Position numbers and translations under genes: made by a program
Notes under the pieces: model-generated
The model's input: the letters and a program-made list of their open reading frames with translations, nothing else
The model's database searches: none
What the model was told of the DNA's origin: nothing
Shown here: positions 2,549 through 52,574 of the stretch, piece by piece
Numbering within the stretch: the first letter of the stretch is position 1
Layout: each line of letters starts with the position of its first letter
Source: Chlamydiota bacterium
GTDB taxonomy: Bacteria; Auribacterota; Tritonobacteria; UBA1439
Assembly: GCA_012729785.1 (NCBI GenBank)
Contig: JAAYCL010000044.1
Span: 34,752 to 98,751 of the forward strand
DNA length: 64,000 nt
Direction: 5' to 3'

Positions 2549-5401
2549 ATGAGTCGCCCGGCCCCCGTCGAACAGAGCCCCGCCCCCGAGAAAGGGTACG
2601 TGACGATACGCCTGGACTGGTTCCGCGTCGTATTCGCCGCGATACTCGCCTTTACCGTCGTGACCCGTTTTTACGGCCTCTCCCTGAAACCGTTTCACCA
2701 CGACGAGAGCCTCTACGCGACCTACTCCTGGTACCTGTTCGAGGGGAGGGGGTACAAGTACGACCCGATGATGCACGGCCCCTTCATGTTCTACCTCGAC
2801 GCCCTCCTCTTCACCCTCTTCGGGGTCGGGGACTTCGTCGCCCGGATGGGCGCGGCGCTCTTCGGTGTGGGGCTCGTCTGGTGCGCCTGGCTGTTCCGAA
2901 AAGAGCTCGGGAAGGCGGGCGCCCTCTCGGCGGCCGCGCTCTTCGCGGTCTCCCCGACGTTCATGTACTTCTCCCGCTTCTTCCGCGAGGATGTCTTCGT
3001 CGCCTTCTGGGCCCTCCTCTCCGTGGGGCTCTTCGTGAATCGACTGCGTGCCGGCTCGAGGGGGTGGCTCTACGGGGCCTCGGCGGCCTTCTCCCTGATG
3101 TTCTGCGTCAAGGAGAACTCGTACATGTTCCTGGCCATCTTCGTTTCGTTCTGGGCTTTCATGCTCCTCTTCGAACGGTGCTTCGGGCGCGCCGCCCTCC
3201 CGGGAACGCCGTGCGCCGCGGGGGGGGGGCGCCGCCTCCTCGGCCTCCTCGACACCGTCGTGGCGCTCGGCATCTTCTTCGCGATCTTCTATCTGTTCTT
3301 CACCTCCTTTTTCCGCAACCCGCCCGGCTTCATCGACGGCCTCTACCGGAAGTCGCTCGGCTACTGGATGCACCAGGACAAGATCCAGCGCATCAAGGGC
3401 CCGTTCACCTACTTCTGCCCGATCGCCGCGACCTACGAGCTCCCCCTGCTGGCCGTCCTCTTCGCCGGCGTCGTCGCCACCCTCAGGCGCCATCGTCTCT
3501 CCCTCGCCGTCATGGCCGGTTCGAGCGCCGTCGCCCTTCCGCTGATGTGCCTCTGGAACCGGCCCCTGCCGGTCGCGTGGGACACGCTGTTCCACATGAC
3601 GAGCACGCTCCACGTCGTCTTCGCCCTCTACGTGTTCGCCCTCGGGATGGCGGCCACCTGCACCTGCCTTCGGGAGGGGAGGCGCTTCGCCGCCTTCGTC
3701 TCCTACTGGAGCTGGACCAGCCTCCTGCTCTACTCGTACGCGGGGGAGAAGGTCCCCTGGCTCCTGATGCACGTGCTGATGCCGATGGTGCTCTGGGCGG
3801 GCGTCTTGTTGGGCGACTTCTTCGCCTCGGAGCGGTTCCGGCGGAACACGAACGCGTACGCGGCGCTCCTCGGGGTCGGGCTCCTCCTCTTCCTGCAGGC
3901 CTCGCTCCGGCTCTGCTTCGTCAACGAGGCCAACCCGGTCGAGTGCATGGTCTACACCCAGACCTCCACGGACATCCAGAAGACGCTGCGGATCATCAAC
4001 GCCCTCGCCGAGGAGACCGGGAAGGGGCTGCAGCTCCCGATCGGCATCCAGGGCGAGTCCACCTGGCCGTACACCTGGTACCTCCGCGACTACAAGGACT
4101 GGTTCCATCCGGGAACCTTCACCGCGCCGAGCAAGATGGTCGTGGCGGTGGACTGGGACAAGCGCCGGGACTTCAGCGCGGTCCTCGAGCCGCACTACCG
4201 GGAGACGCGGATGAAGCTCAGGGAGTGGTGGGTGCCGAGCCCGCTGGGCTCCCTGAAGAGCCCCGGGCCGGGGTGGGCCGAGCGCGTCTTCGGCCGGCGG
4301 CCGTTCTCGGTCTTCATCGCGGACTCCTCCCACCGGCTCCGGGCGCTGCTGCGGTACTACTTCAGCCGGCAGGTCTGGAGCGTCCTCGGCTCGCAGGATA
4401 TCGCCTTCTACGTGCGGCGGGACCTCCTCGGCGAGGCGCCCGGCCCCGTTTCCGCCGCGGAGGCGCCGCAGGCGCCCGCGGTGGCCAAGGAGTATGCGGT
4501 GATCGGGACGACGTCCCCCGACGCCGTCTTCGGTGAGCGGGGAAGCGCCGCGGGCCGCTTCGACGAGCCTCGTGGCATCTGGGCGGACGCAACCGGTGCC
4601 ATCTACGTCGCCGACACCAAGAATCACCGCTGGCAGAAGCTCGACGCGCAGGGGAAGCCCCTCCTCACGGTCGGGAAGCCGGGGAGCGGCCCCGCGGAGT
4701 TCAAGGAGCCGATGGGGATCGCCGTCGACGGCGACGGATTCGTCTACGTCGCCGACACCTGGAATCACCGCATCCAGAAGTTCGACCGGGAGGGGAGATT
4801 CGTCAAGGAGTGGGGCGGCGGCGCGGGCGGCTTCTGGGCTCCGAAAGGCATGGCGTTCGACCGGGAGGGGAACCTGTACGTGGTCGATACGGGGCGGCAC
4901 CGGGTCCAGAAGTTCACGTCCGGCGGCTCCTACCTGCTGCACTGGGGTGACCAGGGGGAGGGGCCGGGAGAGTTCAGGGAACCGGTGGGGATCGTCGTGG
5001 TTTCAGGCGAAGCCGCCGCGGCGGCCGGCGACGATACGAAACAAACGCCCGGGGATGCGGTCCTGGTCGCCGATACCGCCAACAAGCGCGTGCAGAGATT
5101 CGACACGAAGGGGAGGTTCCTCGGGCAGTTCCGCGTCCTCGGGTGGGAGGAGTACTACACCGAGCCGTTCGCCGCGGCGGACTCCGCGGGAAGAATCTGG
5201 CTCACCGACAGCCGGAACAACCGCATCCAGATCTTCAGCCCCGACGGGGTGCTCCAGGCCCTCTGGTCGGCGAAGGGGTTCAAGCCGGGCGACTTCAACG
5301 TCCCGACCGGCATCTTCATCGCCGACGGACGCGTCTACGTCAGCGATACCCACAACCACCGCGTGCAGGTGTTCGCCGAGAAACGGGTCTGCCGGAGGTA
5401 G
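2549..5401 (+). CDS. Polytopic GT-C-type membrane glycosyltransferase (PMT_2/ArnT-like N-terminus) fused to a C-terminal six-bladed NHL-repeat beta-propeller
   Basis: 950 aa. N-terminus has multiple TM helices and an HHDESLYATYSW loop motif. C-terminus has six NHL repeats: VYVADTKNHRWQK, VYVADTWNHRIQKF, LYVVDTGRHRVQKF, VLVADTANKRVQRF, IWLTDSRNNRIQIF, VYVSDTHNHRVQVF. Confidence 0.85.
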   Translation: MSRPAPVEQSPAPEKGYVTIRLDWFRVVFAAILAFTVVTRFYGLSLKPFHHDESLYATYSWYLFEGRGYKYDPMMHGPFMFYLDALLFTLFGVGDFVARMGAALFGVGLVWCAWLFRKELGKAGALSAAALFAVSPTFMYFSRFFREDVFVAFWALLSVGLFVNRLRAGSRGWLYGASAAFSLMFCVKENSYMFLAIFVSFWAFMLLFERCFGRAALPGTPCAAGGGRRLLGLLDTVVALGIFFAIFYLFFTSFFRNPPGFIDGLYRKSLGYWMHQDKIQRIKGPFTYFCPIAATYELPLLAVLFAGVVATLRRHRLSLAVMAGSSAVALPLMCLWNRPLPVAWDTLFHMTSTLHVVFALYVFALGMAATCTCLREGRRFAAFVSYWSWTSLLLYSYAGEKVPWLLMHVLMPMVLWAGVLLGDFFASERFRRNTNAYAALLGVGLLLFLQASLRLCFVNEANPVECMVYTQTSTDIQKTLRIINALAEETGKGLQLPIGIQGESTWPYTWYLRDYKDWFHPGTFTAPSKMVVAVDWDKRRDFSAVLEPHYRETRMKLREWWVPSPLGSLKSPGPGWAERVFGRRPFSVFIADSSHRLRALLRYYFSRQVWSVLGSQDIAFYVRRDLLGEAPGPVSAAEAPQAPAVAKEYAVIGTTSPDAVFGERGSAAGRFDEPRGIWADATGAIYVADTKNHRWQKLDAQGKPLLTVGKPGSGPAEFKEPMGIAVDGDGFVYVADTWNHRIQKFDREGRFVKEWGGGAGGFWAPKGMAFDREGNLYVVDTGRHRVQKFTSGGSYLLHWGDQGEGPGEFREPVGIVVVSGEAAAAAGDDTKQTPGDAVLVADTANKRVQRFDTKGRFLGQFRVLGWEEYYTEPFAAADSAGRIWLTDSRNNRIQIFSPDGVLQALWSAKGFKPGDFNVPTGIFIADGRVYVSDTHNHRVQVFAEKRVCRR

Positions 5402-5475
5402 GAGCGCCGCGCCCGTTTCCGCCGGCGAACGCGCAGCGCGGCGGGGCCCCTCCGGCCCGAAGGCGGATCGAAACC

Positions 5476-7227
5476 ATGACCGTAGTGCGCACCGTCGTTT
5501 TGGCGCAGCCGCCGCTCCCGGCGAACGAGCGACACAAGCGGGTGCTCCCCCTGGGGCTCGCCTACCTGGCCGCCTACGCCCGCGATCGAATCCCCGGGCT
5601 GCGCGTGCGGATCGTCGACGGCCAGGCGTGCAAGCTCACCGTCCCCCAGATCGCCGAGCAGGTGCGGGCGGAGGATCCTGGGGTTGTCGGCATCACCTAC
5701 TGGACCTGCCAGGCCCCCGCGGCGCACCTCCTCTCCCGGTTGCTCCGCGAGACGGCGCCGGGCGCCGCGATCGTGCACGGGGGGATCCATCCGACCATCT
5801 ATCCCTCCGCGGCGCTCGAGACGGCGGACTACTGCATCATGCACGAGGGAGAGGAGACGTTCGTAGAGCTCCTCCGTCTGCTCGCCGGGGAGGGGCGGGG
5901 GCCTGAGGGGATCGCGGGCCTCGCCTGGAGGGACGGCCGGGAGCCGCGCGTCAACCCGCCGCGGCCGTTCATCGCCGACCTCGACGCGCTCCCGTTCCCC
6001 GCGTGGGATCTCCTGCCGATGGACCGGTACGACTCGCCGCTCCACGTTGTCGGCGGCCGGCGGCTCCCCATCGTCGGTTCCCGAGGCTGCCCCTACGGCT
6101 GCACCTACTGCGGCTCCCCCTTGATGTGGGGCCGCCGCGTCAGGTGGCGCAGCCCGGAAAACATCCTCGCCGAGATGAAGGCCGCGATCGCCGCGCTCGG
6201 CCTCACGCAGTTCCATTTCTGGGACGACAACCTGATGCTCGACCGCCGCCATGTCGAGCGGCTCTGCCGTCTGATCATCGAGGAGCGGCTCGCCGTGCGG
6301 TGGACCGGTCTGACGCGCGCCTCCCATATCGCGCGCAACGGGGATCTGATGGGACTCCTGAAACAGGCAGGGTGCATCGGCCTGGAGGTGGGGATCGAGA
6401 GCGCGAACCCGGAGACGTTCTCGCAGATCGACAAAGACGAGGATTTGCAGGTCATCAGGGAGGTGGCGCACCTCCACAAGGCGCACGGGATGTCCCCCCT
6501 CTTCACCTACATGGCGTGCAACCCGGGGGAGACGATCTCCGGGTATTACGCCCAGGCGCGGTTCATCGACGAGCTTGTCGCGGGGCTCCCGTGGTACGCG
6601 CACTTTCACCCGATGCCCTTCCCGCTCTACACGGGGCAGTTCGCGACCCCCCATATGGGGACGAAGCTCCACGACGAGGCGCCGAAGCTCGGGATGGTGC
6701 TGGCGGAGCGGCTCGAGGAGTACCACCACCATCGGATCAACTTCGTGCCGAACTCGCTCCTCGACGACATACCCGCCCGCAACATCCGGGCGCTCGACCT
6801 GTACCAGTACCGGCTCTGCCGTTACGCCCTCTGGTACTCCTTCTGGGACGACTTCAACGCGGCGGTGCCCCGGGACCGGCAGCGGGAGACGCTGGCGCGG
6901 TACCGGGATTTTCTCTCCTTTTTCTGGAGACTGTGCGACGGCAGGAATACCATCCGCCAAATCGCCGCCGCCGCCGGCCGCAGGGCGGGCGTGGAACCGC
7001 GGCAGGCGGTGCGGTTCGCCGCTTTTACGGCGCTCATCCTCGGGCAGACCGGGGTGATCGTTTCGGCGATCCACGACGCGGGGAGGAGACGGCCGGTGGT
7101 TGCGGTGGCGACGCCGGCCCAGGTCGAGGGCTGCCTCACGCCGGCCGGGGGCGAGATGCCGCCCCCGTCCGCCGCGCGCCGGGTCGCCGACGAGGCCGTA
7201 CGGCTCCTGCGGCGGTTTCTCGGATAG
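5476..7227 (+). CDS. Cobalamin-binding (class B) radical SAM protein
   Basis: 583 aa from ATG 5476. Has a B12-binding-like N-terminus (VVLAQPPLPANERHKRVLPLGLAYLAAY) and a radical SAM CxxxCxxC motif (GSRGCPYGCTYCGSP). Confidence 0.85.
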   Translation: MTVVRTVVLAQPPLPANERHKRVLPLGLAYLAAYARDRIPGLRVRIVDGQACKLTVPQIAEQVRAEDPGVVGITYWTCQAPAAHLLSRLLRETAPGAAIVHGGIHPTIYPSAALETADYCIMHEGEETFVELLRLLAGEGRGPEGIAGLAWRDGREPRVNPPRPFIADLDALPFPAWDLLPMDRYDSPLHVVGGRRLPIVGSRGCPYGCTYCGSPLMWGRRVRWRSPENILAEMKAAIAALGLTQFHFWDDNLMLDRRHVERLCRLIIEERLAVRWTGLTRASHIARNGDLMGLLKQAGCIGLEVGIESANPETFSQIDKDEDLQVIREVAHLHKAHGMSPLFTYMACNPGETISGYYAQARFIDELVAGLPWYAHFHPMPFPLYTGQFATPHMGTKLHDEAPKLGMVLAERLEEYHHHRINFVPNSLLDDIPARNIRALDLYQYRLCRYALWYSFWDDFNAAVPRDRQRETLARYRDFLSFFWRLCDGRNTIRQIAAAAGRRAGVEPRQAVRFAAFTALILGQTGVIVSAIHDAGRRRPVVAVATPAQVEGCLTPAGGEMPPPSAARRVADEAVRLLRRFLG

Positions 7228-7252
7228 GAATCGGGACAGAAGGGGGGGCGGG

Positions 7253-8284
7253 GTGGCGTCCTTGAAGAAGCTCTATCAGTACCACACCTATCGGGGGGCC
7301 TTCCAGCTCGTCAGGATGCTCGCGCCTGGATGCGGGGCGGAGCGCGGAGTGTGCACCGCAGGCCGCCCCCCCGACGGCGTATCGCCCTCCCGCGATTACC
7401 GCGCGATGCTTGTGCGCCTTATGCGGTTCAACCTCGCCTACGGGGCTGAGCGCCTCCAGCCCATCCACTACGTGCGGTATATCGAATACGCCCTCGCCGG
7501 GGCCCTCGCGGACATAGGGGAGGGGATGCGCGTGCTCGACGTGGGGAGCGGGGGATCGCTTCTCCCCGCTTTTCTGCTCTCCCTCGGGGCGACGGTGTAC
7601 AGCACCGATATCGACGCCGGCGTGCGGTTTCAACCGAAGATATGCCGCCTCAACAAGTTGCTCCGGGAGAGGGATCTCGAGAGGCTGCGGGTCGAGATCA
7701 GGGACATGCGACGCACCGGCTATCCCGAAGGGTATTTCGACAGGGTGATACTGCTCTCGATGGTGGAGCATATCCACTACGGCGACGATTCCGTCGCGAT
7801 GAAGGAAGCCGCGCGCATCCTCAAGCCCGGGGGAAAAATCTTTCTCACCTTCGATGTCGCACGGGACGCCCACGAGCTCATCTACCAGGGGCGCTACTAT
7901 TATGGCTTCACCATGGACGACATCAGGGGGATACAGGACGAGGTGCGCAAGGATCCGTCGCGCCGCCTCCAGGAGGATTTCATTACGCTCAAGGAGGGAT
8001 ACAACCCAGGCTACACGCGCTTCTACAACGAACGCACGATGATGGAATCCCTCGTCGCCCCGTCGGGTCTGGAGCTCGTCGAACACGGTTATTTCGGGGA
8101 CCACACCTTCGTGATCAGGGCCTTTTTCGACAGGAGGGGGATCGTCGAGTATCTCCACTGGATCCAGCCGATCCTCGCGTTGCTCATCTACCGAAGATAC
8201 GCCGGTGCGAACGAGCTGAGCGAGAAGCCGGGCGCAATCGGGTACTGTGTCCTGCAAAAGCCGTCCGCGCCCCCCGGGGCATAG
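7253..8284 (+). CDS. Class I SAM-dependent methyltransferase
   Basis: GTG 7253 is preceded by AGGGGGGGCGGG. Motif I VLDVGSGGSLLPAFL and a post-I acidic TDID are present, plus KPGGKIFLTF. Confidence 0.75.
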   Translation: MASLKKLYQYHTYRGAFQLVRMLAPGCGAERGVCTAGRPPDGVSPSRDYRAMLVRLMRFNLAYGAERLQPIHYVRYIEYALAGALADIGEGMRVLDVGSGGSLLPAFLLSLGATVYSTDIDAGVRFQPKICRLNKLLRERDLERLRVEIRDMRRTGYPEGYFDRVILLSMVEHIHYGDDSVAMKEAARILKPGGKIFLTFDVARDAHELIYQGRYYYGFTMDDIRGIQDEVRKDPSRRLQEDFITLKEGYNPGYTRFYNERTMMESLVAPSGLELVEHGYFGDHTFVIRAFFDRRGIVEYLHWIQPILALLIYRRYAGANELSEKPGAIGYCVLQKPSAPPGA

Positions 8285-8347: not shown

Positions 8348-9208
8348 ATGTGCGTGAGGGCGCTCTCGCGGCTGAAGTCCCTGTGCACCGTGCACCGGGA
8401 ACTGCTCTTCCACCTGGCGTTGAAGAACCTGAAGGTGCAGTACAAGTACGCCTTCCTCGGATTCCTCTGGGCGTTCTTCGTGCCGCTCTGCATGGCGCTG
8501 GTCTTCTGGTTCCTCTTCGCCTTCCTCTGGCAGCGGCCGATACCGCCCCTCTCCATCGTGACGGCCCTCTTCGTCTGGCAGTTCGTCAATATGAGCATCG
8601 CGAGCTCCACGACCTCCATCATCGACAACGCGGGCCTGCTCAAGAAGGTCTACATCCCGCGGGAGATCGTCCCCCTTTCGATCGTGCTGTCGAACTTCAT
8701 CAACTTCCTCCTGTCGCTCGTGGTGCTGGTCGTGCTGGTCCTGATCTACACCACCTTCAAGGCGGGTCACCCGATCCTCCCCGTACAGATCCTTTTGCTC
8801 CCCCCGCTGGTCGTGGTGACGTTCCTGATGACGTCGGGGTTCGTGCTGATCACCTCGTCCCTCCAGGTGCTCTACCGGGACGTGAAGTACATCGTGGAGA
8901 TCGCCCTCCTGATCATCTTCTATCTTTCCGGCGCCTTCTACGAGGTGGACCTGATCGCCGCCGGCGCCGCCAGGAAAGGGATTCCGTGGCTCGTGCACCT
9001 GTTCATGTTGAACCCGATCTACGACCTGTTCGCGATGTACCGGATCGTCCTTCTTCCCTCCGCCATCTCGGAGATGACGGTGGACATCTCGCGGTACTAC
9101 CCGGTCTGGCTTGTGGTCTCCCAGACCGTCGTGTTCAGCGTTCTCCTCTTCGTCGCCGCCTACCGGATGTTTCTGCGGAGGGAAGTCGACCTGGTCGACC
9201 TGATTTGA
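8348..9208 (+). CDS. wzm: ABC-2 type polysaccharide export permease (Wzm/TagG-like)
   Basis: 286 aa with 6 predicted TM helices. LKNLKVQYKYAFLGFLWAFFVPL is the ABC-2 permease signature. The RBS is AAGGGGGAATG. Confidence 0.85.
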   Translation: MCVRALSRLKSLCTVHRELLFHLALKNLKVQYKYAFLGFLWAFFVPLCMALVFWFLFAFLWQRPIPPLSIVTALFVWQFVNMSIASSTTSIIDNAGLLKKVYIPREIVPLSIVLSNFINFLLSLVVLVVLVLIYTTFKAGHPILPVQILLLPPLVVVTFLMTSGFVLITSSLQVLYRDVKYIVEIALLIIFYLSGAFYEVDLIAAGAARKGIPWLVHLFMLNPIYDLFAMYRIVLLPSAISEMTVDISRYYPVWLVVSQTVVFSVLLFVAAYRMFLRREVDLVDLI

Positions 9209-9212
9209 CCCC

Positions 9213-11513
9213 ATGAGCCACAGTATTGAAGTCAAGAATCTCCGGAAGAAGTACCGGGTCTACTTCGAGAAGCCGGCGCTCATCCGCAACATCCTCCCGT
9301 TCCTCGTCTCCCAGGGGAAGGCGCAGGAGTTTTGGGCGCTGGACGGCGTATCCTTCTCGATGCAGAAGGGGGAGTGCGTGGGGATCATCGGCCCCAACGG
9401 CTCGGGGAAGAGCACCATCCTGAGCATCCTCGCGGGGGTCTCCGCGCCCACGGAGGGCGAGGTCTCGATCAGCGGGAGGGTTTCCTCGCTCCTCTCGCTG
9501 GGAGCCGGGTTCAACTTCGAGCTCACCGGGCAGGAGAACGTCTACCTGAACGGCGCCATCCTCGGCCTCTCGAAAACGCAGATCGACGCCATCTACGACG
9601 ACATCGTGGCGTACGCCGACCTCGGGAGGTTCATGAACGCCAAGCTCTCGACCTACTCCTCGGGGATGAACATGCGCCTGGGCTTCGCCATCGCCGTGAT
9701 GGTGCCGTTCGACGTCCTCTTGATGGACGAGATCCTCGCCGTCGGCGACCTCTCCTTCCAGACGAAATGCTTCCGGACGATGCGGAAGTTCTGGGAGGAC
9801 GAGGGAAAGACGGTCATCTTCGTCTCTCACGACCTCGTCAAGATCGAGGAGATCTGCTCGAGCGTCCTCTGGTTCGAGCACGGCAAAATCGAGGCGATGG
9901 GCGCGCCGGAGGAGGTCATCGAGGCGTACCGGGAGCGCTACCGTGAGAAGCTCGCGCTCGGCCCCGCGGTGAAGCGGCAGGCGCGCGCCGAGGTCCCGGT
10001 GCTCGTGACCGTGGACGCCGCGAGGGAGCTCCGGCGGATCCCGGAGACGATCTTCGGAAGCAACGTCGACATCTTCAGCGACGGGTGCATCGTGTATGAC
10101 GGGAAGCGGCGGCAGGCAAACCGGATGGCCCACGCATGGATCGCGCCGCTCGGTTTCACATTGTTCAGATACCCCGGGATGTTCCATGCGGACTATTTTC
10201 ACTGGCGTGAGGCGGTCGGCGAGGAGCGCCTCCCGCAGGTGTGCGGCACCTCCTCCTCGAAATCCACGCTGCCGCCCACCTTCGGCCCCGCGGAGTTCCT
10301 CGATATGTGCACCACGCTCGCCGCGGCGCCGATGGTCACGCTGAACGCGGGGACGGGCACAGCGGAGGAGGCGGCGGCATGGGTCTCGTGGATCCGGGAG
10401 CGTTACCGGGGGCCGCTCCACCTCGAAATCGGGCACGAGCTCTACTACGACGAGTTCCATCCCCTCGGGGCCGACTTCCCCTGGACTCCCGCTCGCTACG
10501 CGGGAGCCGTGGAGGAGTTCTCGCGCGCCGTGCGGGCAGTGGACGGCGAGGCGAGGATCGGCGCGCAGTGCTGCATCGAGAACGGGGCGTTCACGCGTTA
10601 CCGCGACCCCCGCTGGAACGAGGCGCTCCTCGCGCTCCCACCAGGAACGTTCGATTTCCTCTCTCTGCACCACGCCTCCCTCCCCATCCTGAACATCACC
10701 GGAGACTACCGCACCCCCGCCGACGCCGAGACCTACGGTACGCTTCTCGCAGCCCCGGCCTTCGTCGAGGCGAGCCTGGCGGCGCTGGCGGCGCAGGCGG
10801 CGCGCGCGGGCCGGGCCGGCATCCCCATCGCCCTGAGCGAGTACGGCTGCTTCTTCACGAGCGTGCCGAACATCGTCCACGGGACCCACGCGGTGCACGA
10901 CCGCTGCTCCGACTCGGTGGAGTGGGGGAGGAACCACACGCTCGCCGCCGCCCTATACGAGGCAGGCGTCCTCCACGCCTGCCTCAGGCGGCCGGAGGTG
11001 CAGATCGCGGCGCGCATGACCCTCTTCCATACGCTCTTCTCCAGTGTGGCGGACTTGCGTCGCCAAGCCCGCCACCCGCAGTACCTCGTGCACGAACTTC
11101 TCGACAGATTCGCGGGCAAGACGCTGGTCCCCTCGCGGGTGGAGACGAAGCGGATCGCGACCCCGGCGCTGGGCTTCGTGCCGGCGCTGCGCGATCTCCC
11201 GATCTGCGAGGCGGTGGCGGTGAAGGATGCCGGAGGGGGAAAGATCGCCCTCTCCCTGATCAACCGCAGCCTGGACAGTCCCATCAGCGTCCGGCTCGAC
11301 CTGAACGGCTTCGCGGCGCGCTTCTGCACCGTCAGGACCGTCTCCGCCGAGAGCCCGGAGTGCGACCACACCCTCCCCGGCCCCGGCCAGGTGGCGATGG
11401 GGCAGCAGACCTATCGCACGGAGGGGATGCGGGGAGGGGACGGGTTGCTGCGCTATCTCCTTCCGCGGCACTCGCTGAGCGTGATCTCCTTTTCCGACGA
11501 GGACTGGATCTGA
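9213..11513 (+). CDS. wzt: ABC transporter ATP-binding protein (Wzt/TagH-like NBD) fused to a ~500-aa glycoside-hydrolase-like (clan GH-A TIM-barrel-like) C-terminal domain
   Basis: Walker A GPNGSGKST, signature LSTYSSGMNMRL and Walker B LLMDEILAVGD lie in the first ~250 aa. The C-terminus contains LEIGHELYYDE and IALSEYGCFF, reminiscent of GH-A acid/base and nucleophile glutamates. Confidence 0.85.
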   Translation: MSHSIEVKNLRKKYRVYFEKPALIRNILPFLVSQGKAQEFWALDGVSFSMQKGECVGIIGPNGSGKSTILSILAGVSAPTEGEVSISGRVSSLLSLGAGFNFELTGQENVYLNGAILGLSKTQIDAIYDDIVAYADLGRFMNAKLSTYSSGMNMRLGFAIAVMVPFDVLLMDEILAVGDLSFQTKCFRTMRKFWEDEGKTVIFVSHDLVKIEEICSSVLWFEHGKIEAMGAPEEVIEAYRERYREKLALGPAVKRQARAEVPVLVTVDAARELRRIPETIFGSNVDIFSDGCIVYDGKRRQANRMAHAWIAPLGFTLFRYPGMFHADYFHWREAVGEERLPQVCGTSSSKSTLPPTFGPAEFLDMCTTLAAAPMVTLNAGTGTAEEAAAWVSWIRERYRGPLHLEIGHELYYDEFHPLGADFPWTPARYAGAVEEFSRAVRAVDGEARIGAQCCIENGAFTRYRDPRWNEALLALPPGTFDFLSLHHASLPILNITGDYRTPADAETYGTLLAAPAFVEASLAALAAQAARAGRAGIPIALSEYGCFFTSVPNIVHGTHAVHDRCSDSVEWGRNHTLAAALYEAGVLHACLRRPEVQIAARMTLFHTLFSSVADLRRQARHPQYLVHELLDRFAGKTLVPSRVETKRIATPALGFVPALRDLPICEAVAVKDAGGGKIALSLINRSLDSPISVRLDLNGFAARFCTVRTVSAESPECDHTLPGPGQVAMGQQTYRTEGMRGGDGLLRYLLPRHSLSVISFSDEDWI

Positions 11514-11547: not shown

Positions 11548-12765
11548 ATGGACCATCGCGACGAACATCGGCTCGCAGGGATAACCGGCGGGTCCCGCGC
11601 CCTCTGCGGGCCCGAACAGATCCATCTCGATCTCACCAACGCGTGCACACTGCGCTGCCTCTGCTGCTGGCACCGCTCGCCGCTCCTTGCCGCAGGGGAT
11701 ATTCCCCCCCACTGGTCGCCGGACCACCGTCTCTCGTACGAGACGGCCCTCGGCGTCATCGAGGACGCGGCGGCGATGGGGGTTCGGCGGATCATATTCA
11801 GCGGCGGGGGCGACCCCCTCTGCCACCCCCGCACGATGGACCTGCTCCGGGCCGCGGCGGAGAGGGGGCTGGAGACCACCCTCATCACCAACCTCGTTGT
11901 CGCCGGGGCGGAGACGATCCGAACGCTTGTCGAGGCGCGCCTCGGCAGGCTGGCGGTGAGTCTGTGGGCCGGCGACGAAAAGACGTACGCCGTGATGCAT
12001 CCGGGCGCGTCTTTCGGGACCTTCGGGAGGATCGTGGGGCTGCTCCGGGGCCTCGGGGCCCCCCTCCCTCCGGGACGCGGGCCGCAGCTCATCCTGACGC
12101 ACGTGCTGTGCGCGCGCAACGCCGGGAATATCGAGGCGATGGTGCGCCTTGCCGTGGAGCTCGGCGCGGGCCAGATCTGGTTCCAGCCGACGGATGTGGA
12201 GACGCCGCGTCTGAAGCCGCTCCTGCTGGGCCGGGCGGAGATCGCGGCCGTCGTCGCGTCGCTCGAAAACTGCGCCGCACGGTTCCGCCCCCTCCTGCGG
12301 CCCGGGCAGGAGGGGCTTCTCGACTTCAGCCTGCTCCTCGGAAAGCTTTCCAACAGCAGGGCCCACGAAGGGGTCTTCCACTCCGACGTGATCGACACGA
12401 TGCCCTGCTACATGGGTTGGTACGAGAGCCGGATACTCGCCAACGGCGACGTGGTTCCGTGCTGCAAGGCGGACCGTCTTCCGCTCGGTTCTGTGCGCGA
12501 GCGGCGCTTCCGCGACATATGGTTCTCGCCTGCGTACGACGAGTTCCGGAGGCGGGCGCTGACCCTCTCCAAGTCGGACCCGTACTTCGCGAAGATCCGG
12601 TGCGGGAAGTTCTGCGACGACTGGTGGCTGAATGCCATCGTCCACCGGTCGTACCTCGGCAGCCGCGCGCGGCCCGGCGGGAGGGACCGGCGCGGGCCGG
12701 CCAAACGGATCCTCTCCGCGTTTCTCAAACTGGCGGGTCGGCGGGGCGGGGAGGGGGGGGCGTGA
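11548..12765 (+). CDS. Radical SAM / SPASM-domain protein
   Basis: 405 aa with CxxxCxxC (LTNACTLRCLCC). The C-terminal Cys cluster (CYMGW...VVPCC...KIRCGKFC) is SPASM-like. Confidence 0.85.
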   Translation: MDHRDEHRLAGITGGSRALCGPEQIHLDLTNACTLRCLCCWHRSPLLAAGDIPPHWSPDHRLSYETALGVIEDAAAMGVRRIIFSGGGDPLCHPRTMDLLRAAAERGLETTLITNLVVAGAETIRTLVEARLGRLAVSLWAGDEKTYAVMHPGASFGTFGRIVGLLRGLGAPLPPGRGPQLILTHVLCARNAGNIEAMVRLAVELGAGQIWFQPTDVETPRLKPLLLGRAEIAAVVASLENCAARFRPLLRPGQEGLLDFSLLLGKLSNSRAHEGVFHSDVIDTMPCYMGWYESRILANGDVVPCCKADRLPLGSVRERRFRDIWFSPAYDEFRRRALTLSKSDPYFAKIRCGKFCDDWWLNAIVHRSYLGSRARPGGRDRRGPAKRILSAFLKLAGRRGGEGGA

Positions 12766-13907
12766 AGGTCGTCTTCATCGGGCTCAGCGGCTATGACCAT
12801 CCGTACGTGCGGGTGCGCTGCCACAACTTCGCGAAGCTGCTCAGGGAACGGGGGGTCGAGGCGGAGGTGCTCTCCTTCAAGGAGGCATTCTCCCCCTCGG
12901 TCGCGGACGACGGGATGCTCCGCCTCCGCGACCCGCAGAAGCTCGGGCAGACCCTGAGGGCGCTGTGCCGGCTGGCGGGGAAGCGGCGGGCGATCCTTTA
13001 CGTTCAGAAGGCGCACTGGCATGCGGCGGCGCCGTTCATCCTCCGGAGGTTGCGGCTCAACCGGTTCGTCCTCGACTACGACGATTGGGATCTCGACCGG
13101 TCGCCGTTCTTCGACCGGAAGCGGATGAACCGGCTGCTGTTCGGGGCCGACGGCGTGGAGCCGATCACGCGGCGGGTGGCCGCCGCGGCGGACGCGGTGG
13201 TGGCGTCCAGCGGGCCTCTCCTCGAGCTCATGCGGCGGTACAACCCCGCCGCGTTTCTCGTCCCGACCGGCGTCGACGAGAAGAGGTTCAGGAGGACGGG
13301 ACCTCCCCCCGAAGGCCCCGTCACCGCGGTCTGGTGCGGGAAGGTATGGGGGCGAGTGATCTACGAGAACCTCCGTTTTTGCGTCGACTGCGTGCTCGAT
13401 GCGCGGCGCGTCCATCCGTCCCTGCGGTTTGTCGTCGCCGGGGACGGCGCGTGGATGGGGAGGATCGAAGAGTATGTCCGGGAGCGGGGCGCGGGCGGTG
13501 TCGAGTTCGCCGGATGGATACACCCCGACCGGATGTCCGATTTCCTCTCGCGGGCGCACATAGGGCTCCTCCCGCTGGTCCCCGACGCCGAAAACTCCGA
13601 TTGGATGCGGTGCAAGAGCCCGACAAAGCTTTTCGAGTACATGGCCATGGAGATCCCCACCGTGGCCAGCAGGTACGGGGAGGCGGTATCCATCGTCGCC
13701 GACGGGCAGGAGGCGTTCCTCGCCTCGGAGAGGGGGGAGTTCGCCGCGAAGCTGGCCGCGCTCGCCGGGGACGCGGGCCTCAGGCGAGCGATGGGCTCGC
13801 GGGCTCGGCGAAGGGTGGAGGAGAGATACTGCCATCGGGTGATGGGGGACGCCCTGCTGGAGGCGGTCGAGTGCGCGGCCGGCCTCCGCGGTCGCCTCGG
13901 AGGCTGA
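12762..13907 (+). CDS. GT4-family glycosyltransferase
   Basis: GTG 12762 overlaps the upstream stop (GTGA). The C-terminal EIPTVASRYGEAVSIVADGQEAFL and overall GT-B layout match GT4. Confidence 0.8.
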   Translation: MKVVFIGLSGYDHPYVRVRCHNFAKLLRERGVEAEVLSFKEAFSPSVADDGMLRLRDPQKLGQTLRALCRLAGKRRAILYVQKAHWHAAAPFILRRLRLNRFVLDYDDWDLDRSPFFDRKRMNRLLFGADGVEPITRRVAAAADAVVASSGPLLELMRRYNPAAFLVPTGVDEKRFRRTGPPPEGPVTAVWCGKVWGRVIYENLRFCVDCVLDARRVHPSLRFVVAGDGAWMGRIEEYVRERGAGGVEFAGWIHPDRMSDFLSRAHIGLLPLVPDAENSDWMRCKSPTKLFEYMAMEIPTVASRYGEAVSIVADGQEAFLASERGEFAAKLAALAGDAGLRRAMGSRARRRVEERYCHRVMGDALLEAVECAAGLRGRLGG

Positions 13908-13984
13908 AATGGCGGGACGGAAGCCGCGCGGGTGTGGTATCATCCGCTCGTGCATGGCGGCGGCCCGCGCAAGGGGGGGCAGGA

Positions 13985-15547
13985 GTGAAAAGTCCGCGTG
14001 AACATGACGCAGTCTCGCCGGGCGGCCGCGGAACCGCACTGACGCTCTGCATCTGTTGCCTGCTGGTCGCGTACGGAAGTTTCTTTATCCTGCTCGACTA
14101 TCTCCAACCGTTTGCCGGCGTGTGGCGCAATCCGATCTCGGTGGAAACGCTCACCTTTGCGCAGACGGGGAAGAACCTCGCGCGAGGCAGAGGGTTCACC
14201 ACCGAGTGGATCCTCCCCGCAGCCCTGCGCTACGCGCAATCCTTGGCGCGGGTGCCCGATCTGTATAATCCGCCACTTTACCCGGCCCTTCTCGGGGTCT
14301 TCTTTGCCGTGTTCGGCGTTCATTTCCACTCCATACTCCTCTGCACGGGGGTGTTGTTTCTGGCAACCGGGGTGTGCATCTATTTCTTCGCACGAGACGC
14401 ATTCGGTCCCTATGCGGCGATAGCCGCGGCGGCACTCTTCCTCTCCAGCGCGCCGATGCGCTGGTACGTCATCAAGGGCGAGAACATAGCCCTGCTGGTG
14501 TTGTTAATGACGCTGCTGTTCTGGAAACTCTACAAAAGCCGGATGAGCGCCCCGCGGGACGCCATGCTGATCGGCGCGCTGGCCGGCATGTGCTATCTCA
14601 CCGCGTACCCGTACTGGGTCCTGCTGCTTCCCCTCTGCGCCTCCTGCCTCGCCTCTTCCGGGGAGCGGAGGGGCGGGAACGTCCTTGCGTTGCTCGGCGG
14701 ATTCTGCGCCGTCTCGGCGTGCTGGTGGCTCCGCAACGCCATCGTCACGGGGAATCCGTTCTTCACGCTCCGCCTGGGGGCCGGGATATACGGAAAGGCG
14801 TTCACATCCGCGCTCGAGTCGGTCCTCAAGAGCGTTGGGGACGTGCTCGCCCCGGGGGCCCGGATAAGAAACCTGCGATGGCAATCCGGCACCCTGGTCA
14901 CGATGTACGGCAACTGGCTGATCGTTCTCCTCATCGCCGCCGCCTTTTGGAAATGCGATGACGCGCGGATGCAGTGGACGCGGCGGGTGCTGTACGTTTC
15001 CTGGGCGGCGATCTGGATCCTCGTGGGAAGCTGGACGTCTGTCATCGGTCCCCTGGCGGCCCTCCCGTTCCTGCCCCTCGCGTGTATCATCGTATCGGGT
15101 TTCATGTTCCGCATCGCGACTGCGGTAAACCTTCGGCGCGTTTCCATCTGTATCGCCATCACGGCGGCACTGGTCGTCGTCAACACCGCTCCCCTCCCGT
15201 TCTGGATCTACCAGGGGGCGGCGCCCTACGAATGGCCCGCCAGCGCCTACCTCGACACGGTCCCGAAAGAAAAGGTCTTCTTCTCCGACATGGCGCTGCA
15301 AATCGCGTGGCTCAAGGACAGGCCGGCGGTCGAGATGCCGATGGATGCCGGGGAGTGCGCGAAGGTCGCCTCGATGGCTCCCGGTGGCGTGGCGGTGTAC
15401 ATGTCCCAGGACTTCGGCGACGAGTACGGGGCCTCCTCGGCCTTCTGGCTCGGGATCCACGCCGCGGCGCGAAACGGCGTTCTGAGCCGCACCTTGCCGG
15501 CGCGACGCGGGGAGTTGTTCGGGGACGGGGAATACCTCTTCTACTGA
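13985..15547 (+). CDS. Polytopic membrane protein, PMT_2/GT-C-like glycosyltransferase paralog
   Basis: GTG 13985, about 520 aa and 10 or more TM helices. The loop ETLTFAQTGKNLARGRGF resembles the EYHWLAKNLCRGRG motif of the 17439 gene. Confidence 0.6.
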   Translation: MKSPREHDAVSPGGRGTALTLCICCLLVAYGSFFILLDYLQPFAGVWRNPISVETLTFAQTGKNLARGRGFTTEWILPAALRYAQSLARVPDLYNPPLYPALLGVFFAVFGVHFHSILLCTGVLFLATGVCIYFFARDAFGPYAAIAAAALFLSSAPMRWYVIKGENIALLVLLMTLLFWKLYKSRMSAPRDAMLIGALAGMCYLTAYPYWVLLLPLCASCLASSGERRGGNVLALLGGFCAVSACWWLRNAIVTGNPFFTLRLGAGIYGKAFTSALESVLKSVGDVLAPGARIRNLRWQSGTLVTMYGNWLIVLLIAAAFWKCDDARMQWTRRVLYVSWAAIWILVGSWTSVIGPLAALPFLPLACIIVSGFMFRIATAVNLRRVSICIAITAALVVVNTAPLPFWIYQGAAPYEWPASAYLDTVPKEKVFFSDMALQIAWLKDRPAVEMPMDAGECAKVASMAPGGVAVYMSQDFGDEYGASSAFWLGIHAAARNGVLSRTLPARRGELFGDGEYLFY

Positions 15548-15578
15548 GGGGCGTCAATTCCACTCCGTCTTTGTGAGC

Positions 15579-16196
15579 ATGTCGCCTTCGATACGGCTTT
15601 GCAGGGTCTACCTTTCGCTGCTGCTGTGCATCGGCGCCGCCTTCGCGTTCGTGAACGCGGCCGGCTACGCGGCGAGACGCTATTGGATCCCTTCCCGCGT
15701 CAGATTCGCCGTGATCGAGGATTTCCTCTTCTCCATCAAGGCGGGGGATGCCGGGCACGCCATCGAGCTTCTGTCTCCCGAGACGACCGTCGTGACGGAC
15801 GAGGAGGGGGAGATCATCGGGCTTGCCGAGGGGGACTATTTTTGCTCCCTTCGCGAGCTCGCCCGCTGCGCCATCGATGATGAGTATCCAGAGGGGCAGA
15901 TGTTGAGAAATGGCGCTTTCCTGAAGGTGATCAGCCGCCGCGCGGTCTCCCTCGTCTCCGCCGATACGCCCTTCCCGTGGAACGGGACAGAGTACCTGCG
16001 CAGGAGCCGCCGGGAGAAGATCCACACGGTGACCGCCCATCTGCGCGAGAAGATCGGCGACGACAGGAGCTGGATATTCGGCCTCACCGAGCTCGAACGG
16101 CTCACGAAGGCGCGCCTGATTCCTGAAAGGATGCCCCCCCCCGTGGAGAGGGCGCGCGTGCTTTCAGGGATCGAAAGACAGATGGCGCATGACTGA
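15579..16196 (+). CDS. Hypothetical secreted protein (N-terminal signal peptide)
   Basis: ATG 15579. Hydrophobic N-terminus SIRLCRVYLSLLLCIGAAFAFVNA. No recognisable domain. Confidence 0.5.
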   Translation: MSPSIRLCRVYLSLLLCIGAAFAFVNAAGYAARRYWIPSRVRFAVIEDFLFSIKAGDAGHAIELLSPETTVVTDEEGEIIGLAEGDYFCSLRELARCAIDDEYPEGQMLRNGAFLKVISRRAVSLVSADTPFPWNGTEYLRRSRREKIHTVTAHLREKIGDDRSWIFGLTELERLTKARLIPERMPPPVERARVLSGIERQMAHD

Positions 16197-17307: not shown

Positions 17308-17438
17308 TCCCTCGGGTGTGCGCTCACCCGCCTTGCGGGAGGGGCCTGTCGGGAGGCTACACCGGGAGCGCGTGCATCGCTGCATCGCTGGTGGTATACT
17401 CGCGCGGATCAGGACCGCCCCATCGGGAGAAGGCATCC

Positions 17439-23376: not shown

Positions 23377-23404
23377 GATGTCCAATCCCCTAAGGCAGGG
23401 CCTT

Positions 23405-23413
23405 ATCATAGCA
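23405..23413 (-). promoter_or_regulatory. Candidate extended -10 (TGcTATGAT on minus strand) for the 21724..23376 gene
   Basis: Revcomp of 23405-23413 is TGCTATGAT. It lies ~29 nt upstream of ATG 23376, with AGGGGATT RBS-like sequence in between. Confidence 0.3.
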
Positions 23414-23465
23414 CACAGCCGGTGCTACATTAAGGGCCGGGTCAATGGCTGCGGTTGCGGCCCGA

Positions 23466-23474
23466 TGGTATACT
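23466..23474 (+). promoter_or_regulatory. Candidate extended -10 (TGgTATACT) giving a leaderless or short-leader transcript of the ARH-family gene
   Basis: The -10 ends 6 nt before ATG 23481. Confidence 0.3.
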
Positions 23475-23480
23475 GTTCGC

Positions 23481-26746: not shown

Positions 26747-26770
26747 GGGGCGTGCCCGGCGCCGTCCGCC

Positions 26771-36288: not shown

Positions 36289-36377
36289 GCGCATCGGCTG
36301 GGCCCGGTTCACCCTGCGCCACCGGGAGACGCATCAGAAGAGCCGGTGCCCGGGTAGCGCATGGTCCCCCAAACGAA

Positions 36378-37844: not shown

Positions 37845-37959
37845 CGCCGCACCGTGAGAGAATGAGGCTCCGTCGCGGCTTTTGCCGCGGGTGCCTCCCC
37901 CGGCGCGATCGAGGAGGCACGGCGGTCTGGGCGGCCGTTGCGCCTGGAGGGTGGACTCG

Positions 37960-42178: not shown

Positions 42179-42237
42179 GTGCGGCGCGGACCGGATATGC
42201 GCCCGTTGAAACTTGTTCAGAACGCGAGGCGGACACA

Positions 42238-43776: not shown

Positions 43777-43835
43777 GGACGGGGTGGCGGGTGGCGCGAG
43801 GTAGATGCTATACTTGCGCGTCCGGAGGGTTGATC

Positions 43836-44771: not shown

Positions 44772-44785
44772 AGGCGGGGGGAACG

Positions 44786-52441: not shown

Positions 52442-52574
52442 CGTTTTCGCATCCTTGCGTGCACACCGGCGCAGTGGCGTTTTTGTAAACTTTTGCGCGG
52501 CGCGCCGGACTGCAAGGAGAAGAAGAAGCCCCGCCACCCTCTGATGGCGGGCGTTGCATAACACGTTCTTGTCC

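Follow-up and report, generated by a model that had tools for sequence, protein, structure and literature searches.

A GH51-derived domain in place of Wzt_C on a Wzt-type ABC ATPase and its possible role as a reader of exported glycans

A Wzt-type ABC ATPase encoded in the 64-kb stretch of DNA analyzed here (the window) carries a C-terminal domain of about 510 residues that derives from glycoside hydrolase family 51 (GH51). The fusion gene (wzt::GH51-like, positions 9213–11513 including the stop codon, + strand) encodes a protein of 766 amino acids. Comparison of the aligned orthologs shows that the fusion has a single origin, that the catalytic constraint on the domain has been lost, and that new conserved residues have been gained. 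This comparative evidence suggests that the domain recognizes the polymer and does not cut it. On balance, we favor the reading that a pseudo-glycosidase has replaced Wzt_C as the reader of the glycan end.

The ATPase domain and its operon

The nucleotide-binding domain (NBD; residues 1–246, positions 9213–9950, + strand) is of the Wzt/TarH type, with an N-terminal insertion (residues ~17–40, gate-helix region) and a C-terminal hinge helix (EVIEAYRERYREK). It harbors the canonical ABC motifs, namely Walker A GPNGSGKST (residues 60–68), the signature YSSGM (148–152), Walker B VLLMDE (168–173), and the H-loop SHD (205–207), and matches Pfam ABC_tran at 7e-20. The best single PDB match is TarH (6jbh, 3e-63, residues 1–247), and Wzt from A. 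aeolicus (6amx, 7k2t) matches residues 5–241 at 1e-60. The match to these solved NBDs runs end to end and includes the gate-helix insertion and the hinge helix. Motifs and structure matches thus bear out the preliminary description, in which this part of the protein was called a Wzt-type ABC ATPase with intact Walker A, signature, and Walker B. In the full-length AlphaFold2 (AF2) model the NBD is confidently predicted, but pLDDT falls below 50 at residues 19–26.

The TagH/Wzt models of NCBIfam match the NBD at 2e-65 to 9e-45. Because the scores stay under all equivalog cut-offs, those of TagH and the galactan exporter Wzt/RfbE among them (221.5 against 538, 190.2 against 320, and 152.8 against 400 bits), the protein is a Wzt-type ATPase that is not assignable to a named exporter. 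The teichoic-acid exporter ATPases TagH/TarH provide the best of these models as well as the best PDB match, but the window protein scores far under the TagH cut-offs and TarH lacks a GH domain. In Bacillus subtilis TagH, the C-terminal extension is unrelated and lies behind a membrane segment, whereas the window protein has no transmembrane segment.

The adjacent ABC-2 type permease expected for a Wzt/TagH-type exporter is encoded by wzm (positions 8348–9208, + strand; Pfam ABC2_membrane, PF01061, 2.5e-11). It matches the galactan Wzm/RfbD model of NCBIfam at 1.2e-18, under the cut-off, and the TarG/Wzm permeases in the PDB at 7e-15 to 3e-6. A wzm gene lies upstream of every fused wzt. In the window, 4 nt separate its TGA from the wzt ATG, and the two genes are probably translationally coupled. 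The gene product appears to serve as ATPase in a type V ABC exporter of the Wzm/Wzt kind for a lipid-linked cell-surface glycan; export of a polyprenyl-linked glycan is suggested by the GT2, GT4, and GT-C genes that surround the fused wzt.

The neighborhood common to all six lineages of fused proteins consists of a B12-binding radical SAM gene, a GT4 gene, wzm, and the fused wzt; a radical SAM/SPASM gene is co-conserved in five of the six. In the window, the B12-binding radical SAM gene was assigned by Pfam (positions 5143–7227, + strand; the actual start codon probably lies beyond 5401). It is also found adjacent, at 53–81% identity, in the loci L001, L002, L007, L010, and L014. Its best PDB match is AprD4 (2.8e-21), and none of the NCBIfam cut-offs is reached. 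The radical SAM/SPASM gene (Pfam; positions 11548–12765, + strand) directly follows the fused wzt and is 49–78% identical in L001, L002, L005, L007, and L016. Directly upstream of wzm lies a class I SAM methyltransferase gene (positions 7100–8284, + strand; Pfam Methyltransf_11, 1.5e-12), the product of which is a candidate capping enzyme. Its ortholog is present in L001 only, and different methyltransferases are found near other fused loci. NCBIfam and PDB searches of the neighboring radical SAM and methyltransferase genes returned no specific function. A tRNA search of the 64-kb window found none, and no housekeeping marker was seen in it.

Structure of the GH51-like domain

The NBD is followed by a flexible linker of ~12 residues (residues ~247–260, positions 9951–9992, + strand; pLDDT below 50 at 251–256) that lacks a transmembrane segment. 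The domain behind it takes on the two-part fold of GH51 enzymes, that is, a (β/α)8 barrel (residues ~261–633, positions 9993–11111, + strand; supported by phmmer, AF2, Foldseek, and profile) and a C-terminal β-sandwich (residues ~634–766, positions 11112–11510, + strand). The first strand (261–268) packs against the β-sandwich in the GH51 fashion. The tail of the sandwich (...SLSVISFSDEDWI) is specific to the fused clade, and its W765 occurs in none of 70 free-standing relatives.

Homology to GH51 is found at several levels. Pfam Alpha-L-AF_C matches residues 560–754 (1.5e-6; 29 bits, cut-off 27), the C-terminal domain matches Thermotoga GH51 structures at 1e-15 in phmmer, and a family profile matches 3ug3 at 3e-92. 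AF2 predicts the domain alone with a pLDDT of 92.9 and a pTM of 0.94, and with this model the top 45 PDB matches in Foldseek are all GH51 (E 2e-30, TM 0.73–0.81), with GH79 next. Identity to the solved GH51 enzymes is only 15–21%. In the full-length model the pTM is 0.71, and the orientation of the domain to the NBD is left unfixed. The initial GH-A-like assignment of the C-terminal ~510 residues therefore holds and can be narrowed to GH51-like; the Pfam and structure-prediction checks that had been proposed for this region yield Alpha-L-AF_C, a GH51-type fold, and no carbohydrate-binding module (CBM).

The claim that a GH fold stands where Wzt proteins have a β-sandwich CBM of ~150 residues is likewise supported. 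PF14524 (Wzt_C) has no match at E ≤ 1 in the Pfam search of the fusion protein. Outside the fused clade, it is found at the same position in 81 of the 120 nearest relatives of the NBD. A Wzt_C hidden in the terminal β-sandwich was considered and ruled out, as this part matches Alpha-L-AF_C instead. Also ruled out was a TagH-like topology with a membrane segment and an extracellular domain, as residues 240–766 contain no transmembrane-like segment (top 19-residue hydropathy, 1.56). Lacking such a segment, the fused domain is predicted to be cytoplasmic.

Catalytic residues in fused and free proteins

The catalytic columns were compared between 12 fused proteins from six lineages and 70 free GH51-like relatives; the NBD screen covered the best 150 of 1641 matches from an exhaustive representative search. 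The free relatives keep the GH51 signature nearly throughout, with N408, E409, T542, E543, and H486 in 70/70, Y489 in 68/70, and E286 in 64/70. The window protein retains both catalytic glutamates, and the two candidates first picked by eye in GHELYYDE and LSEYG align with the GH51 acid/base (E409) and nucleophile (E543), respectively. The acid/base lies in a His408-Glu409 pair (positions 10434–10439, + strand), in a register confirmed by profile alignment to 3ug3. The solved GH51 enzymes have an Asn-Glu pair here, at the end of β4. This Asn is found in no fused protein, where position 408 is His (10/12) or Cys (2/12). A pairwise phmmer alignment of “HPLGADF” with “WGIGNEM,” which would make the acid/base an Asp, was rejected, as the profile and 70-sequence alignments pair EIGHELY with (W)GIGNEMY.

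The nucleophile position at the end of β7 is part of S542-E543 in the window protein (positions 10836–10841, + strand), in place of the Thr-Glu of the free relatives. Across the six fused lineages position 543 reads E, D, E, Q, F, and P. The nucleophile Glu is therefore conserved in two lineages only, that of the window and L015. L014 has an Asp that could act as nucleophile, and one of the four lineages that lost the Glu has lost the acid/base Glu as well. The Q543 variant is seen on nine contigs and the P543 variant in two different sequences. Other parts of the −1 subsite have changed too. The Glu of FGxNxEW is replaced by Asp (E286D), and the Tyr of HxxY is never found at position 489, which is a Ser in the window protein (Y489S). 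The P0013 lineage additionally lacks R319, H486, and several of the His residues typical of the fused clade.

Since both the Asn and the nucleophile have been lost among orthologs that share the operon context, hydrolysis is not the conserved job of the domain. This speaks against the role first proposed for it, that of a hydrolase in chain trimming or chain-length control. In the window's own clade and in L015, where both glutamates are kept, residual or altered hydrolysis is possible.

Residues gained in the fused clade

The fused domains are monophyletic (bootstrap 98/100 in a neighbor-joining tree). In the GH51-like domain the six lineages share 30–55% identity. When the fused loci are compared gene by gene, the domain is 31–64% identical, as against 62–91% for the NBD, and the neighboring enzymes also diverge more slowly than the domain. 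Such faster divergence is as expected for a specificity domain. Conserved residues peculiar to the clade are D286, R339, H408, Y412, H416, R462-Y463-R464, Y544, R573, and R601, and an insertion at 556–564 is conserved as well; residues and insertion sit after β4, β5, β7, and β8. R462-Y463-R464 belong to the loop FTRYRDPRW after β5 (positions 10590–10616, + strand), of which R462 and Y463 occur in all six fused lineages but in none of the 70 free proteins. The insertion (VPNIVHGTHAVHDR, positions 10863–10904, + strand) follows the nucleophile strand β7; its H556, G557, H559, and V561 are conserved in five to six of the six lineages and fall on gaps in 70/70 free relatives. Judged from the strands that they follow, not from coordinates, the new residues would lie on the catalytic face of the barrel. 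Monophyly, own conserved residues, and a conserved insertion together indicate that the domain has not simply decayed.

A profile search of an index of 5.8 billion proteins found no further fused members. Two of the fused proteins, P0012 and P0013, are absent from its results and were recovered by the exhaustive representative search and a metagenome DNA scan.

Proposed mechanism

GH51 enzymes are exo-acting, and their pocket accepts a terminal nonreducing furanoside, which is the geometry required of a cap reader. In the proposed mechanism, the cap-binding jelly roll of Wzt_C would have been replaced by a descendant of such an exo-glycosidase. The free relatives of the domain are mostly secreted, and the fused domain would now be cytoplasmic and tethered via the ~12-residue linker to the hinge helix of the NBD. 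The completed polymer would be bound at its nonreducing end or cap by the remodeled −1 pocket and so be recruited or licensed for export as with the carbohydrate-binding domain (CBD) of Wzt, with no need for cleavage. That the ligand is a glycan terminus and that its binding gates export are both suggested by analogy. The position shared with PF14524 in the NBD relatives supports the analogy with cap reading, and the new residues probably line the former active site. GH51 enzymes are usually hexamers, and the CBDs of Wzt are strand-swapped dimers; the accommodation of a 510-residue domain below an NBD dimer is a difficulty for the mechanism. In characterized systems, Wzt_C binds the chain-terminating cap and is needed for export (PMC9445017; PMC11231755), and a class of pseudo-glycosidases that bind glycans has been documented (PMC7828330).

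A more specific form of the mechanism, which we regard as rather unlikely, links the domain to the co-conserved radical SAM enzymes, of which the B12-dependent one is encoded next to wzm or wzt in each lineage. These cytoplasmic enzymes would install a new kind of chain-terminating cap, for example a terminal sugar that has undergone C-methylation, deoxygenation, or another radical-based modification and may be anionic, which the Arg/His-rich pocket would bind to license export. If so, the radical SAM-made cap and its GH51-derived reader would form an undescribed terminator–reader pair in ABC-dependent glycan assembly.

Alternative explanations

The fused domain might instead be a scaffold or docking platform, for example as a tether between the exporter and the enzymes of the GT4 and radical SAM genes or as a means of oligomerization, or it might bind an anionic ligand other than a glycan, such as a polyprenyl-pyrophosphate head group or a nucleotide. 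We consider this unlikely, though several features fit it. Among the conserved residues specific to the fused proteins, ten are Arg or His (R339, H408, H416, R462, R464, H556, H559, R564, R573, and R601), and every lineage keeps a B12-binding radical SAM gene and a GT4 gene together with the fusion, all but one the SPASM gene as well. In the P0013 lineage the fusion and its context persist despite the loss of most canonical sugar-contact positions; with R319, H486, and several new His residues gone, the pocket of this lineage may be nonfunctional, which would favor a scaffold. The positional analogy to Wzt_C favors cap reading, however, and many barrel-pocket positions in common with the free GH51-like proteins (D327, W331, E361, N378, W468, and D481) are still invariant in all fused lineages. 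Sites rich in Arg and His also fit acidic or phosphorylated caps, and methyl-phosphate and Kdo are known cap types (PMC9445017).

An active, export-coupled glycosidase seems quite improbable. Acting in the cytoplasm, the domain of the window clade would hydrolyze a furanoside or similar residue at the terminus of the lipid-linked glycan, and so trim or proofread the nonreducing end or set the chain length before or during loading into Wzm. All six window-clade sequences and L015 do have both E409 and E543, and the barrel is intact in a high-confidence model. A His-Glu pair in place of Asn-Glu is also found in at least one active family of clan GH-A, GH26. However, retention of both glutamates is weak evidence, because 43% of the columns are invariant within the window clade (chance retention of two residues, p ~0.19). 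The Asn at 408 common to the free proteins is missing, the window clade carries G323M besides E286D and Y489S, and orthologs in the same operon have Gln, Phe, or Pro for the nucleophile, one lineage lacking the acid/base as well. We know of no cytoplasmic glycosidase trimming in ABC-dependent glycan export, and none was found in the literature searched.

That separate wzt and GH51 genes were merged by a frameshift or a chimeric contig, a possibility raised in the preliminary description, can be dismissed with near certainty, as the frame is continuous with no internal stop, GC3 is uniform (0.91, similar to adjacent genes), NBD and GH51-like domain are contiguous and in frame with an identical junction in 18 independently assembled loci of six lineages (from NCBI, ENA, JGI, and Logan assemblies), and no NBD lies beside ~45 other GH51-like loci from the metagenome scan. 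One protein, P0001, which derives from independent assemblies, is 100% identical to the window fusion protein. A homolog with 64–67% identity is labeled “Chlamydiota bacterium,” a label that we treat as uncertain given a GC content of 64%.

Comparison with known systems

The window protein resembles Wzt proteins with Wzt_C (A. aeolicus WzmWzt, 7k2t/8dku; Escherichia coli O9a; Klebsiella pneumoniae O12) in its NBD, which matches full-length A. aeolicus Wzt at 1e-59 to 4e-60, in its Wzm partner, and in the extra domain directly after the hinge helix. The likely shared role, by analogy, is selection of the finished lipid-linked glycan for export. Their extra domain is a jelly roll of ~150 residues, whereas the GH51 barrel and β-sandwich of the fused protein descend from an enzyme and in some lineages still have one or both catalytic glutamates.

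With GH51 α-L-arabinofuranosidases such as Thermotoga maritima Tm-AFase (3ug3/3ug4) and Thermobacillus xylanilyticus AbfD3 (2vrq) the domain shares the two-domain fold and, in the window protein, the placement of both glutamates. It differs by its fusion to an ABC ATPase, its cytoplasmic site, the insertion after β7, the replacement of the Asn by His, E286D, Y489S, T542S, and W544Y, and a nucleophile that is not conserved among orthologs. The nearest sequence relatives of the C-terminal domain form a subfamily of free GH51-like proteins in uncultured bacteria of soil and sediment (P0008–P0011, P0014 and later; 23–35% identity, E down to 1e-54), some of which are annotated “alpha-N-arabinofuranosidase,” for example in a Bryobacterales MAG. 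Both groups have the HxxY and PGG-x-x-x-D variants, which set the subfamily apart from textbook GH51. The free proteins often carry an N-terminal module of ~200 residues, all have GNE and TE, and none lies beside an NBD; a signal-like N terminus is present in 92 of the 130 that start with Met.

PgaB is part of a polysaccharide export machine. Its C-terminal pseudo-esterase, the GH18 lectins YKL-39 and YKL-40, and the inactive trans-sialidase of Trypanosoma cruzi have kept an enzyme fold, lost or altered the catalytic residues, and gained glycan binding (PMC7828330). These proteins belong to other folds and families and lack a fusion to the ATPase of an ABC transporter; for the domain described here, glycan binding is proposed by analogy with them.

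Significance

No published description of a Wzt–glycosidase fusion was found in the literature searched, and an earlier mention in surveys of CBMs linked to ABC transporters is possible. To our knowledge, all structurally characterized cap-reading domains of O-antigen-type ABC exporters are small jelly-roll modules. Automated CAZyme profiling would class the fused genes as arabinofuranosidases and hence among the degraders of plant biomass, to which they almost certainly do not belong. The tight linkage to B12-binding and SPASM radical SAM genes is a hint of unexplored chemistry of glycan modification in uncultured bacteria, for which radical SAM chemistry would suggest an anaerobic lifestyle. 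The nucleophile series E, D, Q, F, and P in one conserved operon is a natural set of variants for the transition from enzyme to lectin. If the proposed reading is right, the reader slot of Wzt would be open to unrelated folds, and a secreted exo-glycosidase could be converted into a cytoplasmic recognition domain.

Domain architecture of the fusion protein

The wzt::GH51 fusion is encoded by one uninterrupted ORF of 766 aa (9213-11513, forward strand), whose third-position GC of 0.91 is like that of the neighboring genes (window GC 66%). Its ATG lies 4 nt past the stop codon of wzm (8348-9208), which encodes an ABC-2 permease matching TarG/Wzm structures. A Wzt/TagH-type ABC ATPase (NBD; Pfam ABC_tran, 7e-20) makes up residues 1-246 and carries Walker A (60-68), the signature YSSGM (148-152), Walker B (168-173), and an H-loop (205-207). 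Over its whole length the NBD can be aligned with TarH (6jbh, 3e-63) and with A. aeolicus (Aquifex aeolicus) Wzt (1e-60), and its best NCBIfam models are teichoic-acid and galactan exporters, with every score under the equivalog cut-off. By structure, the NBD and its partner permease belong to the Wzt transporter family.

Residues ~261-766 (C-domain) are homologous to GH51 α-L-arabinofuranosidases. Thermotoga GH51 enzymes are matched at 1e-15 (phmmer), a C-domain profile including 61 relatives matches GH51 at 3e-92, and the Pfam Alpha-L-AF_C match lies only just over threshold. The AlphaFold2 model takes on a (β/α)8 barrel followed by a β-sandwich (pLDDT 92.9, pTM 0.94), and every one of its best 45 PDB matches by Foldseek belongs to GH51 (E 2e-30 to 8e-24, TM 0.73-0.81), with GH79 next. 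The full-length model is confident within each domain, but pLDDT falls below 50 at residues 251-256 and pTM drops to 0.71; a short flexible linker therefore joins two folded units whose orientation is not fixed in the prediction. No transmembrane-like segment occurs beyond residue 240, so the C-domain is cytoplasmic, as is the NBD.

This position is normally taken by Wzt_C (PF14524), a jelly-roll carbohydrate-binding domain (CBD). In the systems characterized so far, this module binds the cap that terminates the chain at its non-reducing end, and capped O-antigen depends on it for export (PMC9445017; PMC11231755). The nearest NBDs outside the fused clade (identity at most ~52%) mostly belong to 390-445-aa proteins. 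Since PF14524 is present in 81 of the 120 nearest NBD relatives listed and has no Pfam match in the window protein, the GH51-like domain fills the cap-reader slot. The C-domain does not belong to the Wzt_C family; the fusion protein, which shares the transporter family through its NBD and permease, is taken to work like a Wzt with a CBD.

Loss of the catalytic signature

The preliminary description pointed to two candidate catalytic glutamates; by profile and multiple alignments one of these, E409, is homologous to the GH51 acid/base and the other, E543, to the nucleophile. Those alignments were used for the catalytic residues because the pairwise HMMER alignment to Thermotoga GH51, with which they disagree, is shifted in register at the acid/base and was rejected. 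Twelve fused sequences from six lineages were compared with 70 free relatives, which are GH51-like proteins without an NBD (window numbering). Position 408 is Asn in 70/70 free relatives, whereas fused proteins have His (10) or Cys (2) and never Asn. The acid/base 409 is Glu in all 70 and in the fused proteins, except for Asn in the lineage of protein P0013 and locus L018. The nucleophile 543, again Glu in 70/70, is retained in the window clade (the lineage holding the window's own protein) and locus L015, but is Asp in L014, Gln in the P0012 lineage, Phe in L016, and Pro in P0013/L018. Position 542 (Thr in 70/70) is Ser in the window clade and P0012, Thr in L014, L015, and L016, and Gly in P0013/L018. 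Position 486 (His in 70/70) stays His but for Arg in P0013/L018; position 489 (Tyr in 68/70) is Ser, Thr, Glu, or Val, never Tyr; and position 286 (Glu in 64/70) is Asp in 11/12, with Cys in L016. By fold and homology the extra domain belongs to GH51, but it departs from the family's catalytic signature where the Asn of the Asn-Glu pair is replaced and at two other positions in the pocket; it is therefore called GH51-derived rather than a GH51 enzyme.

The Gln variant of the nucleophile occurs on nine contigs and the Pro variant in two different sequences, so the substitutions do not stem from errors in sequencing. Without the nucleophile, a retaining GH-A mechanism cannot operate. Loss of this residue while fusion and gene context were kept indicates that hydrolysis is not the function that selection maintained in the fused clade. 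The hydrolase-like character first suggested for the C-domain is borne out in its GH51 ancestry and in the two glutamates of the window clade, but the catalytic signature is not maintained across the fused clade.

Remodeling of the domain and proposed mechanism

Residues were defined as fused-specific if five or all six of the fused lineages conserve them and few or none of the 70 free relatives have them. They comprise D286, R339, Q342, H408, Y412, D413, H416, the triplet R462-Y463-R464 (R462 and Y463 in 0/70 free relatives), Y499, P502, Y544 (Trp in free relatives), R573, E583, R601, and the C-terminal Trp, W765, together with an insertion around H556-G557-x-H559...R564 that is a gap in 70/70 free relatives. 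Judged by these sequences, the C-domain is remodeled rather than decaying. By model strand positions, the fused-specific residues map at or just past β4, β5, β7, and β8. In clan GH-A the active-site pocket is built on that face of the barrel, where the fused-specific residues would thus lie. Ten of them are Arg or His, a set that might conceivably suit an acidic or phosphorylated ligand; caps known elsewhere include methyl-phosphate and Kdo (PMC9445017). The C-domain also evolves faster than the other parts of the locus: across loci it is 31-64% identical to the window, compared with 62-91% in the NBD, 53-81% in the neighboring B12 radical SAM enzyme, and 49-78% in the SPASM enzyme. A domain that determines specificity would be expected to behave in this way.

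We lean toward a pseudo-glycosidase in which the GH51-derived domain would replace the Wzt cap-binding domain and bind the polymer end for export. GH51 enzymes are exo-acting. A pocket descended from the terminal non-reducing furanoside site would bind the lipid-linked polymer at its finished end and recruit it to Wzm/Wzt; the ATP cycle would then free it, on the model of canonical CBDs, for which such release has been proposed (PMC9445017). Some GH51 enzymes also accept β-D-galactofuranosides (PMC11627007), and pseudo-glycosidases that bind without cutting are a documented class (PMC7828330). Among the free relatives with an initial Met, 92 of 130 have a signal-like hydrophobic N-terminus, so recruitment to the cytoplasm also took the domain away from ancestral substrates.

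The C-domain might instead act as a scaffold or bind a ligand other than a glycan, which we consider unlikely. Still less probable is a trimming or proofreading glycosidase that remains active in the window clade. This clade keeps both catalytic glutamates, but 43% of its C-domain columns are invariant, so that their retention (about p = 0.19) is weak evidence.

Distribution and origin of the fusion

In the protein index, seven clusters at 90% identity have the same architecture (766-771 aa, C-domain identity 62-100%). When 1.84 billion cluster representatives were scanned exhaustively with HMMER, 1641 C-domain relatives emerged; among the best 150, only two more carry a Wzt NBD: P0012 (773 aa, 39%) and P0013 (772 aa, 32%). 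A DNA-pattern scan of metagenome contigs added the fused loci L014, L015, L016, and L018. The NBD lies directly upstream and in frame at 18/18 loci with a C-domain match of at least 31% over its length; the other GH51-like loci from the metagenome scan, roughly 45 in number, have no NBD nearby. In a neighbor-joining tree with the 70 free relatives, the fused C-domains group as a single clade (bootstrap 98/100). The in-frame NBD at 18 loci and the monophyly of the C-domains exclude two genes joined by frameshift or chimeric assembly, the refuting alternative raised earlier, leaving an artifact exceedingly improbable, and by sequence comparison the fusion is real, rare, and old, with a single origin.

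The GH-like domains of the P0012 and P0013 lineages are only 34% identical, and yet both clusters (L007, 322-5439; L010, 523-5827) lie directly downstream of the same uvrB-uvrC-response regulator/HD genes. This shared flank suggests vertical inheritance at a fixed chromosomal site, not recent horizontal transfer. Locus L002 (GCA_037133055.1, JBAXOY010000012.1; GC 64%) comes from a MAG labeled "Chlamydiota bacterium". As 64% GC seems high for Chlamydiota, the label may be wrong or the sign of a deep lineage.

Gene neighborhood

All six lineages share a core of B12-binding radical SAM, GT4, wzm, and fused wzt genes; a radical SAM/SPASM gene is present in 5/6, and SAM methyltransferases are usual nearby. 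In the window, the order is a GT-C/NHL gene (2549-5401), the B12 radical SAM gene (about 5400-7227; longest ORF 5143-7227), a methyltransferase gene (7100-8284), wzm, wzt::GH51, and a SPASM radical SAM gene (11548-12765) before several GT-C (PMT_2) genes. The longest ORFs overlap on the same strand (2549-5401/5143-7227 by 259 nt, 5143-7227/7100-8284 by 128 nt), so the true starts of the B12 radical SAM and methyltransferase genes are probably downstream of those listed; B12 radical SAM homologs are 568-584 aa long, whereas the longest ORF would encode 694 aa. Among solved structures, the B12 enzyme is closest to AprD4, a sugar diol-dehydratase, and none of the radical SAM genes tested scores above a curated NCBIfam cut-off. 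This neighborhood is consistent with an ABC-transporter-dependent pathway: a glycan would be assembled and modified in the cytoplasm and, after export, probably be decorated by GT-C enzymes outside.

Eleven radical SAM genes, six with B12-binding and three with SPASM domains, are interleaved with glycosyltransferases in the 64 kb (5143-7227, 11548-12765, 25652-26770(-), 35835-37844, 39082-40143, 52554-53633, 53141-55063, 55070-56161, 56193-57566, 57563-59008, 58705-60429), which is unusually dense for a glycan-assembly island. Large membrane glycosyltransferases of the GT-C/PMT_2 type are encoded by five genes, two in tandem, at 2549-5401, 12965-15547, 17316-19517, 19519-21687, and 33302-35173. 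The first encodes 950 aa with a C-terminal NHL β-propeller, matches TIGR03663 ("flippase activity-associated protein Agl23", an archaeal-type N-glycosylation family) at 333 bits (cut-off 126), and is conserved at 73-77% in loci L001 and L002. Within the glycan cluster, 23445-25682 encodes 745 aa with an N-terminal ADP-ribosylglycohydrolase domain (1.2e-43) and ~400 C-terminal residues without assignment. A ~757-aa protein (49800-52073(-)) ends in an F5/8 type C (discoidin, galactose-binding-like) domain, and a 537-aa GHMP-kinase protein (46745-48358) has ~300 N-terminal aa without assignment. Long putative ORFs without a Pfam match at E<=1e-3 are 37858-39081, 40151-42178, 42217-43773(-), 43773-45251(-), 45724-46632(-), 15573-16196, and 21724-23409(-), the last with a 69% identical counterpart in L001.

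No description of a Wzt-glycosidase fusion was found in the literature searched; an earlier mention is possible, for example in the main survey of CBMs on ABC transporters. The fusion comes from uncultured bacteria, and the function proposed for it derives from comparative evidence only. To specialists in glycan export a Wzt-GH51 fusion would come as a surprise; it also provides a natural series from enzyme to reader.
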